From contig JAVVZO010000001.1 in the NCBI GenBank assembly GCA_036650515.1, forward strand, positions 39,189-103,188: DNA of 64,000 nt, read 5' to 3'. Origin of the DNA: Alistipes sp. Its GTDB lineage: Bacteria > Bacteroidota > Bacteroidia > Bacteroidales > Rikenellaceae. Positions 35,769 to 37,610 of the stretch are shown here, piece after piece; the stretch's first letter is position 1; each line of letters begins with the position of its first letter. Position numbers and translations under genes: made by a program. A model generated the notes under the pieces. That model ran no database searches. It was not told the DNA's origin and worked only from the letters and a program-made list of their open reading frames with translations.

Positions 35769-36328
35769 TGGCTTACACACCTACACTCAAGACACAGTAT
35801 AAGGAGCAGATTGTTACTGCCCTTATGAAAGAGTTCGGTTACACGAGCGTGATGCAGTGCCCGAAACTCGAGAAGATCGTCATCAACCAAGGTATGGGAC
35901 AAGCTGTCGCAGACAAGAAGTTGATCGAGGTTGCTCAAGCTGAATTGGCTCAGATTACAGGTCAAAAAGCTGTTCTCACCAAGTCGAGAAAGGATATCTC
36001 TAACTTCAAACTCCGTAAAGGTATGCCGATCGGGGTACGCGTTACACTGCGCCAAACCAAGATGTATGAGTTTTTGGAGCGTTTAGTCGCTGTTGCCCTT
36101 CCGCGTATTCGCGATTTTAAGGGGATCAATGAGAAGTTTGATGGTCAAGGTAACTATACCTTGGGTATCACCGAGCAGATCATCTTCCCTGAAATCGACA
36201 TCGACAAGATCACCAAGATCTTTGGTATGGAGATTACTTTCGTTACCACGGCCGCTACCGATGAAGAGGCTTATGCTCTTCTTTGCGCATTCGGTCTTCC
36301 TTTCAAAAACGCAAAAAAGAACCAATAA
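35768..36328 (+). CDS. rplE: 50S ribosomal protein L5
   Basis: [10 protein letters not shown] and LPRIRDFKG motifs. Confidence 0.99.
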
Positions 36329-36331
36329 GCT

Positions 36332-36628
36332 ATGGCAAAAGAGTCAATGAAGGCACGCGAAGTGAAGCGTGTAAAGCTTGCAAACCGTTACGCACACAAG
36401 CGTGAGGAGATTGCTGCTAAGTTGAAAGGTGGAGAAATTGATCACGAGGAGGCTTGGGTTGCATTATCTAAGTTACCCCGTAATTCCAATCCCATCCGTC
36501 AGCACAATCGCTGCAAGCTGACCGGTCGTCCGAAAGGATATATTCGCCTGTTCGGAGTCAGTCGTATTCAGTTCCGTGAGATGGCGTCGAATGGCCTCAT
36601 CCCCGGCGTGACGAAGGCAAGCTGGTAG
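36332..36628 (+). CDS. rpsN: 30S ribosomal protein S14 (zinc-independent form)
   Basis: [11 protein letters not shown] and IPGVTKASW motifs; no CxxC pairs. Confidence 0.98.
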
Positions 36629-37002
36629 TACAACGCGAGGAGCAATCTTCGCTTGTGATAAGTAAGATACGCATTCTGGAGGGTGTAAGCCCGTGGAGTT
36701 GAGCCATAAATGGCAGACACTCGAAAAGGAATCGGATCTGATAAGGGTGTAAAACCGAAGTACAATAGTCTTTAAGTCGAGGAAAGTGCCGCCCGAAGGC
36801 GGTAACTTCTCGACGGAGGGACATTCGAAAGGTTTTTCATTTAGTTACAAAGTTTCCTTCACGGGAAGCCGGTTTAAAGCGTATCCGACAGCATTATTTC
36901 GCTGTTTAAGAAGGATGTAGGTGCGAATTTAACCAGCATTTGTACGAATCATGTTAGCCAGAAATGTTGTGCTAACATTGTTCGTATAGTTGGGTTGACA
37001 TC
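36629..37002 (+). ncRNA. Candidate large structured RNA of unknown family
   Basis: Non-coding stretch with about 10 helices found by eye, GNRA tetraloops (GCAA, GUAA, GAAA twice), a 7-bp long-range helix (36666-36672 with 36879-36885) and a ~90-nt rod hairpin. Confidence 0.6.
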
Positions 37003-37052
37003 TAAATCGCTAAAAATTAAGGTGATCCTGTGATATATTGGGAAATTATGCG

Positions 37053-37060
37053 TATATTTG
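37053..37060 (+). promoter_or_regulatory. Internal -7 promoter element upstream of rpsH
   Basis: TATATTTG followed by C, about 150 nt upstream of the rpsH ATG. Confidence 0.55.
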
Positions 37061-37211
37061 CCCGCTTTATATCTTGTATAACCGCGCATTGCGGTCACGA
37101 AGAGGGGCATATTCGACCATACAAATGGAGTCTAAGAGGATCTATTGTATTGAAGGATAAACAAATAGAAAAACAACAAACTAATTATTAATTTTTAACT
37201 TTTAATTCATT

Positions 37212-37610
37212 ATGACAGATCCAATCGCGGATTTTCTAACCAGAATTAGAAACGCAGTGAAAGCCAACCATAAAGTGGTTGAAGCTCCTGGCTCAAAAAT
37301 TAAGCAGGAAATCACCAAGATTCTTTACGAGCAGGGTTATATCCTGGCGTACAAATTTGACACCGACGAGAAAGGCCATCCGGTTATTAAGCTCGCCTTG
37401 AAGTGGGATGCCGCAACGAAGGGTAACGCCATCAGAAACCTGAAGCGCGTGAGCCGTCCGGGTTTGCGTCAGTATGTCCCCGCAACCAATATGCCGCGTG
37501 TTTTGAACGGTCTTGGTATTGCCATCATTTCCACCTCGAAGGGTATTATGACAGACGCCAAAGCTCGTCGTGAGAATGTCGGTGGAGAGGTACTTTGCTA
37601 TATCTACTAA
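37212..37610 (+). CDS. rpsH: 30S ribosomal protein S8
   Basis: MTDPIADFLTRIRN, SRPGLR and GGEVLCYI motifs. Confidence 0.99.
   Translation: MTDPIADFLTRIRNAVKANHKVVEAPGSKIKQEITKILYEQGYILAYKFDTDEKGHPVIKLALKWDAATKGNAIRNLKRVSRPGLRQYVPATNMPRVLNGLGIAIISTSKGIMTDAKARRENVGGEVLCYIY

Follow-up and report, generated by a model that had tools for sequence, protein, structure and literature searches.

Bacteroidota, to which the abundant human gut genus Alistipes belongs, initiate translation without relying on Shine-Dalgarno sequences, and for this reason the way in which they balance their ribosomal proteins is largely obscure. In Escherichia coli, the spc operon carries an S8 operator at the start of rplE that mimics helix 21 of 16S rRNA (our own reading of the sequence around the rplE start gives AAGU...AUUACU), and the retroregulation of L14 and L24 provides a precedent for feedback on genes located upstream of the S8 site. 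For Bacteroidota, the literature searched contains no description of an S8-linked RNA. Comparative genomics has uncovered leaders of ribosomal-protein genes, e.g. the L13 and S4 leaders of Bacteroidia, and the 20 leader candidates of that study include no S8 leader (Eckert and Weinberg 2020, PMC7247131). In the accessible part of another study, an unnamed candidate of ~60 nt, HMP2_4246, is placed directly upstream of rpsH, within 25 nt (Fremin and Bhatt 2021).

Here we describe a conserved folded RNA in the spacer between rpsN and rpsH of Alistipes, an unbranched irregular rod of ~100 nt made of helices P2, P3 and P4, which is almost certainly a real structured RNA. It is similar to r-leaders (PMC7247131) in being lineage-restricted, supported by covariation and next to ribosomal-protein genes, with a ligand suggested by neighbourhood and by likeness to rRNA. 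However, r-leaders are found in 5' UTRs directly upstream of the gene that they regulate, whereas the rod lies 3' of rpsN and is separated from the downstream rpsH by ~355 nt that include a conserved promoter. With the E. coli S8 operator the rod shares the operon, an asymmetric internal loop on 5'-AAGU and 3'-A..ACU, and an expected ligand that is encoded in that operon. It differs from this operator in position (after rpsN and before a promoter, rather than over a start codon) and in its bulge, which is one A in P4 as opposed to UA in rRNA and UUA in the E. coli mRNA; moreover, P4 is part of a larger rod in which another loop is also conserved, and there is no sequence homology to the E. coli operator. 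The second loop has a GUA strand facing a GAA strand and is flanked by Watson-Crick helices, as are loop E / bulged-G (sarcin-ricin) modules, to which it is likened purely by this sequence signature, its flanking letters being variable.

As far as the accessible part of its description goes, HMP2_4246 is set apart from the rod by position only. None of the 20 candidates of Eckert and Weinberg (2020, PMC7247131) corresponds to the rod, which does not occur by name in that part of Fremin and Bhatt (2021) either. An earlier sequence-only reading of this locus had proposed a large structured RNA that could not be assigned to a known family; in line with this, a search of the window (the whole stretch of 64,000 nt that was analysed) against Rfam 15 at gathering thresholds, with group I/II introns, RNase P, 6S, known ribosomal leaders and Bacteroidales motifs included, returned no match, and with permissive filters the only match at E <= 10 in 36500-37300 was a spurious miRNA (E = 6). 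The rod family is new and absent from Rfam 15.

The rpsN-rpsH spacer and its transcription units

Both rpsN and rpsH are intact, and rpsN is presumably the last gene in the upstream half of the spc operon. The 583 nt between them hold no credible ORF, just as the sequence-only reading had stated, since those present on either strand are short and unconserved. Its premise that this junction is usually short also holds: it measures 21-81 nt in 15 of the 16 other Bacteroidales families sampled, as opposed to 276-1342 nt in Alistipes, and we therefore consider the spc operon to be split in this genus. Sequence is conserved with other species in three blocks only, namely 36725-36855, 36930-37070 and the last ~40 nt before rpsH. 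The features of the locus, given in window coordinates, are the following:

36332-36628, plus strand: rpsN (S14, 98 amino acids, long non-zinc type), an ORF with 88-94% identical tblastn matches in relatives
36629-36657, plus strand: hairpin right after the rpsN stop codon, without a U-tract and with unconserved sequence
36678-36698, plus strand: GNRA-type hairpin GGA-GGGU[GUAA]GCCC-GUGGAG, a module that recurs upstream of the core with variable spacing
36734-36857, plus strand: conserved RNA core (covariance models R1 and R2), comprising the rod P2-P3-P4 and the conserved tail UAGUUACAAAG; identified by one match per genome, covariation and MFE
36746-36756, plus strand: 5' strand of P2, GGUGUAAAACC, which pairs with 36831-36841 and holds the second copy of a repeated 9-mer
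36757-36763, plus strand: J2/3, GAAGUAC with a conserved GUA, which forms an internal loop with J3/2, CGAAA (36826-36830)
36764-36770, plus strand: 5' strand of P3, which pairs with 36820-36825; compensatory changes in all 4 pairs of this helix
36775-36815, plus strand: P4 hairpin, with stems that covary around an invariant asymmetric loop
36781-36788, plus strand: invariant loop of P4, GGAAAGUG, as 5'-GGAAAGUG/3'-UAACUUC with UAACUUC at 36803-36809, from a 95-sequence alignment
36831-36841, plus strand: 3' strand of P2, GGUUUUUCAUU, which pairs with 36746-36756
36931-36994, plus strand: second conserved RNA domain, a long hairpin with the core AUGUUAGC (36951-58) / GCUAACAU (36971-78)
37004-37060, plus strand: Bacteroidetes-type rpsH promoter, with an A-tract (37004-37022), a -33 TTG (37038-37040) and the -7 box TATATTTG (37053-37060)
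37190-37208, plus strand: AAUUUUUAACUUUUAAUUC, just 5' of the rpsH AUG, shared by all Alistipes spacers, rod-bearing or not, and unique in the genome
37212-37610, plus strand: rpsH (S8), which heads the downstream transcription unit, an ORF with tblastn matches in relatives

The plus strand of 36629-36910 folds better than its dinucleotide shuffles (-98.6 kcal/mol, z = -5.75, with none of 200 as good), the corresponding z being -3.4 for the minus strand, -5.85 for the entire spacer and -3.1 for the core at 36734-36857. All complementary segments that the sequence-only reading had named are present where it placed them, and the 9-mer AGGGTGTAA does occur twice, at 36680 and 36744. Nevertheless, no conservation in other species was detectable for the stretches holding its 7-bp helix (36666-72/36879-85), its gcca/tggc pairing and its outermost hairpins (36629-36657 and 36888-36905). 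Nearly all Alistipes spacers have a strong hairpin following the rpsN stop codon, and at least 41 of 96 spacers homologous to this one contain the hairpin GGGU[GUAA]GCCC, a G-C pair being exchanged for A-U between its two forms (GGGU...GCCC vs AGGU...GCCU).

Promoters of Bacteroidetes have the consensus TTTG/TAnnTTTG, and 109 of 114 Alistipes spacers, rod-bearing and rod-less alike, yielded a -7-box match before rpsH. Upstream of the core, the box TAnnTTTG is found in 6 of 96 spacers when 5.3 are expected by chance. A promoter belonging to the rod itself was therefore rejected, and the simplest view is that the rod forms the 3' trailer of the rpsN transcript. The sequence makes its co-transcription with rpsN plausible, although this is not assured, since a hairpin with a T-run appears soon after rpsN in 27% of rod-bearing spacers (vs 43% of rod-less ones). 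Because the conserved rpsH promoter lies downstream of the rod, we place the rod at the end of the upstream transcription unit and outside the rpsH mRNA that this promoter initiates, an arrangement that is, to our knowledge, unlike every known ribosomal leader. The distance from the core to the -7 box ranges from 106 to 843 nt across spacers, and such variation by hundreds of nucleotides in the spacing between the rod and the downstream elements argues against a simple, direct terminator/antiterminator switch. Between the -7 box and the ATG, the leader is 48-356 nt long and varies in sequence, except for AAUUUUUAACUUUUAAUUC immediately before the start codon.

The long hairpin at 36931-36994 has compensatory changes in 8 of 13 pairs and a folding z of -3.8, and its alternations (U-A with U-G; A-U with G-U and G-C) point to the plus strand. 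No intrinsic terminator was found in 36300-37300; this hairpin sits at a terminator position, here without a U-tract, and its homologues have partial U-runs (UAUUCC, UUUUC). It is possibly a processing site of the RNase III type. The element AAUUUUUAACUUUUAAUUC could be a specific translation-initiation or operator element.

Two side observations may be added. An internal promoter splits the spc operon before rpsH throughout Alistipes, and the 21-81 nt junction seen in 15 of 16 sampled families of other Bacteroidales is too small for a promoter. Also, AAUUUUUAACUUUUAAUUC contains UAACUU, a hexamer of the invariant 3' strand of P4.

Distribution and architecture of the rod

The covariance model R1, which represents the first conserved block, was searched against 401 genomes of Rikenellaceae and matched 108 of them, once per genome. 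All of these matches are confined to Alistipes, one of the 31 genera of the family, the core being absent from every other genus in this search. A second model, R2, built from 96 sequences, matched 163 of 376 Alistipes species genomes (92 of the 149 that are of high quality), again once per genome and at one locus. At all fetched loci the match falls between rpsN and rpsH, in gene orientation, with ~100 spacers examined in detail. In its own genome the core is single-copy and therefore neither a repeat nor a MITE, and the multiple copies at unrelated sites that mark a MITE or dispersed repeat are not seen in the 163 genomes, where a single locus is occupied. The P4 pattern was also scanned across 185,579 species genomes, a search in which we estimate that thousands of matches would arise by chance, and the non-Alistipes matches that were inspected all fall inside protein-coding genes. 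Among the matches within the genus is one in a cultured strain, Alistipes putredinis DSM 17216.

Covariation was assessed on an alignment of 96 sequences (95 distinct rows). Standard pairs are formed by 92.8% of the rod cells, whereas displacing the 3' partners by 1-3 columns lowers this to 32-46%, and compensatory changes are present in 22 of the 29 rod pairs. The covariation score is 0.452, whereas shuffles give 0.254 +/- 0.007 and none of 500 reaches 0.452. The rod thereby shows the conserved secondary structure with covariation that is expected of an r-leader or operator. P2, a long-range helix of 11 bp, is paired in 89% of cases and has compensatory (double) changes in 9 of 10 pairs; since P2 was missing from the search model that made the alignment, its support is independent, whereas the other helices were aligned to that model and are somewhat favoured by it. 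Next to P3 there is a conserved GG bulge (36818-36819), followed by two further pairs. G-U pairs are frequent and two of them are invariant, and these place the RNA on the plus strand, which is where the sequence-only reading had put it.

That reading had proposed a multibranch domain of ~280 nt, which now has to be replaced, as the conserved part is the unbranched rod. Its 39-nt hairpin at 36776-36814 is the present P4 and is backed by covariation; its agac/gtct helix and its gagggac...gtttttc hairpin are both displaced by P2 and P3, which covary in the 95 distinct sequences. Folded alone, the core has the same rod as its MFE structure. In a 282-nt context the MFE favours the earlier alternative by ~11 kcal/mol, yet this alternative is without comparative support. 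Several other pairings were considered and set aside. A local hairpin GGGU[GUAAA]ACC (GGGUGUAAAACC, 36745-56) shows weak covariation and was replaced by P2, because its "loop" letters covary with the distal strand. Pairing of the tail, GGCAYU-UGGUUAC, with strands of P4 (AAGUGCC, GUAAC) is kept less well than P2. A conserved helix P1 closing the core was also rejected, as the genus retains no ungapped register for it.

Likeness to ribosomal RNA and candidate ligands

The pairs flanking the P4 loop are invariant in 95 of 95 sequences while the outer and inner stems change freely, and even divergent versions that R1 fails to match still keep RAAAGUG...UAACUUC. An invariant loop amid varying stems is typical of a protein contact. 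In a complete Alistipes genome, helix 21 of 16S rRNA reads GAU-AAGU-UAG / CUA-AUACU-GUU, and the AAGU/AACU of P4 agrees with its AAGU/AUACU in 8 of 9 core letters and in orientation, with U641 missing. The S8 site in rRNA has the base triples A595-(A596-U644) and (G597-C643)-U641, together with a U598-A640 pair and an invariant bulged A642 (PMC4176348). P4 has candidates for A595, A596-U644, G597-C643, U598-A640 and A642, as well as an extra 5' A, but it differs from the helix 21 loop in having no equivalent of U641, the partner in one of the two S8 base triples (PMC4176348). This resemblance was found after the fact, with several candidate proteins under consideration, and the pairing register of P4 cannot be fixed because all loop positions are invariant. 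Hairpins of the form AAGU/A(N)AYU are rare: they occur three times in 128 kb of window sequence (both strands), P4 among them and the only compact one in the 64-kb window, and such a hairpin arises in 3% of shuffled spacers.

Together, J2/3 and J3/2 carry the signature of a GUA/GAA internal loop of the loop-E / bulged-G-like kind, and in the P2-P3 loop a strand NGUAG, AGUAA or GAGUA faces CGAAAG or CGAGGG. Helix III of Alistipes 5S rRNA is AGAG-AA-GU / AC-CUCU, whose AA-bulge the letters of P4 fit about equally well, and loop E of the same rRNA is GAUGGUAC / GAGAGUAGG. As for other rRNA mimicry, GGUAACUUC is also found in 23S rRNA, but in another context and without the GGAAAGUG partner strand, and was rejected.

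A regulatory element bound by a ribosomal protein is the reading that we favour for the rod, at about even odds, and in that case it would offer a binding site to one of the proteins of the spc operon. S8 would be the likeliest candidate, because its gene comes next and because the invariant 5'-AAGU/3'-AACU repeats the core of the S8 site in helix 21 of 16S rRNA and is similar to the sequence at the rplE start of E. coli (AAGU...AUUACU); that S8 specifically is the ligand is a tentative assignment, possible rather than probable. The rod would form the 3' trailer in transcripts from the upstream half of the split operon (...rplE-rpsN), where surplus S8 could dock on it and thereby tie what happens to the upstream transcript to the level of S8, the step affected being stability, 3'-end processing or read-through into rpsH. 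Such a rod would be the split-operon counterpart of the E. coli S8 feedback and retroregulation, and as a sensor in the 3' trailer it would keep L14/L24/L5/S14 in step with S8/L6/L18/S5. The GUA/GAA loop may in addition dock a second protein, which would make the rod a two-site composite mimic of rRNA. Whether this would be the first bacterial ribosomal-protein sensor located in a 3' trailer, with S8 from the downstream unit controlling the upstream transcript, is a proposal that we regard as doubtful.

For a conserved rod of this kind one may also consider explanations other than S8 binding. P4 can be drawn as GGA-AA-GU / AC-UUC, like 5S helix III (helix, AA bulge, GU-AC), and the GUA of J2/3 with the GAA of J3/2 can be seen as a loop-E or sarcin-ricin-type module, so that the rod might bind L18, L5 or L6 by imitating features of 5S or 23S rRNA; the genes concerned are in the same cluster, rplE upstream and rplF and rplR downstream, as in the established spc gene order. 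We nevertheless consider this quite unlikely, as S8 is the established spc regulator and we know of no bacterial autoregulation by L5, L18 or L6. Furthermore, the orientation and the AAC of the 3' strand fit helix 21 slightly better, there is no resemblance to 5S loop B or helix II past the GU/AC step, and the loop-E assignment is based on three-letter signatures. The strong conservation of structure without a known family, the stable flanking hairpins that could define processed ends and the promoter that separates the rod from rpsH would also suit an independent or processed ncRNA (a 3'-UTR-derived sRNA or a structural RNA) unrelated to ribosomal-protein sensing. This appears somewhat unlikely given that synteny within a ribosomal-protein operon is strict in each of the ~100 spacers that were studied in detail, and given the confinement to part of one genus and the lack of a long conserved single-stranded seed, the conserved letters being in the internal loops of the rod.

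In other respects the rod could be seen as a passive, ligand-free element for processing or stability, i.e. an RNase III/E site or a block to 3' exonucleases that determines how much proximal relative to distal spc product is made. Long, nearly continuous helices both in the rod and in the 36931-36994 hairpin, and the location at the boundary of two transcription units, are what one would expect of it, but a nuclease substrate has no need of 15 loop nucleotides that stay invariant in 95 divergent sequences while the stems drift, and we hold this explanation to be improbable. We regard it as highly improbable that the element represents a ribozyme, the remnant of an intron or a mobile or repetitive sequence, a possibility that the sequence-only reading had raised on the basis of the dense structure and a loose local likeness to group I J6/7-P7 and RNase P P4. 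Even at E <= 10 Rfam gives no ribozyme or intron match, and the element is single-copy in every genome and fixed in position, with neither an interrupted gene nor terminal repeats; the hairpin-pattern matches inspected outside Alistipes, being inside protein-coding genes, argue likewise against this possibility. The conserved core is an unbranched rod with no junction resembling a conserved catalytic core, and the likeness to group I introns and RNase P is not supported.

The rod is a concrete and testable candidate with unusually good covariation support (95 distinct sequences). If it binds S8, the code by which S8 recognizes helix 21 would have been reinvented in a new context, and it would follow that, once an operon has split, feedback can operate from the 3' end of one of its transcription units. 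Without such binding, the rod would still be a new and well-defined structured RNA family for Rfam.

Other elements in Alistipes spacers and non-coding DNA

In a small clade whose spacers have no rod, the 5' leader of rpsH has an AAGU/AYAUU hairpin, CUCAG-AAGU-GCC[UGUAG]GGC-AYAUU, which is found in ~9 genomes of the genus with almost no variation. We count this hairpin in favour of the ribosomal-protein reading of the rod, with the reservation that it stems from a single small clade. It appears as CUCAGAAGUGCC[UGUAG]GGCAYAUUYG within a CGCACC...GGUGCG stem (at ~183-215 of the spacer in L005, and in L008, L120 and L123). Another rod-less clade (L118, L121) has an rpsH leader hairpin of the form GCU-GUA-AAUCG...CGAU-GAA-AGC, and its GUA/GAA internal loop resembles the P2-P3 loop of the rod.

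Outside this locus, several Alistipes genomes (L268, L270, L278 and L279, at about position 1500) have a conserved hairpin AAGAAGUGCC[UAAC]GGCACAUUCGCAU in unrelated stretches of non-coding DNA, apparently inside a larger structured region. In one species (L015), a ~52-nt unit (GGGCUGCUGGAGGUAGGUUUCCGGAAGGAAUCCGCUGACGC) is repeated in tandem about ten times in the first ~520 nt of the spacer after rpsN, ahead of the rod, and it is similar to the UUCCGGAAGG sequence that flanks the upstream GNRA hairpin. Lastly, some Alistipes species (L115, L124 and L128) have rod-less spacers of 800-950 nt in which a canonical terminator follows rpsN and other sequence is inserted, the insert being repeated about three times in L124.
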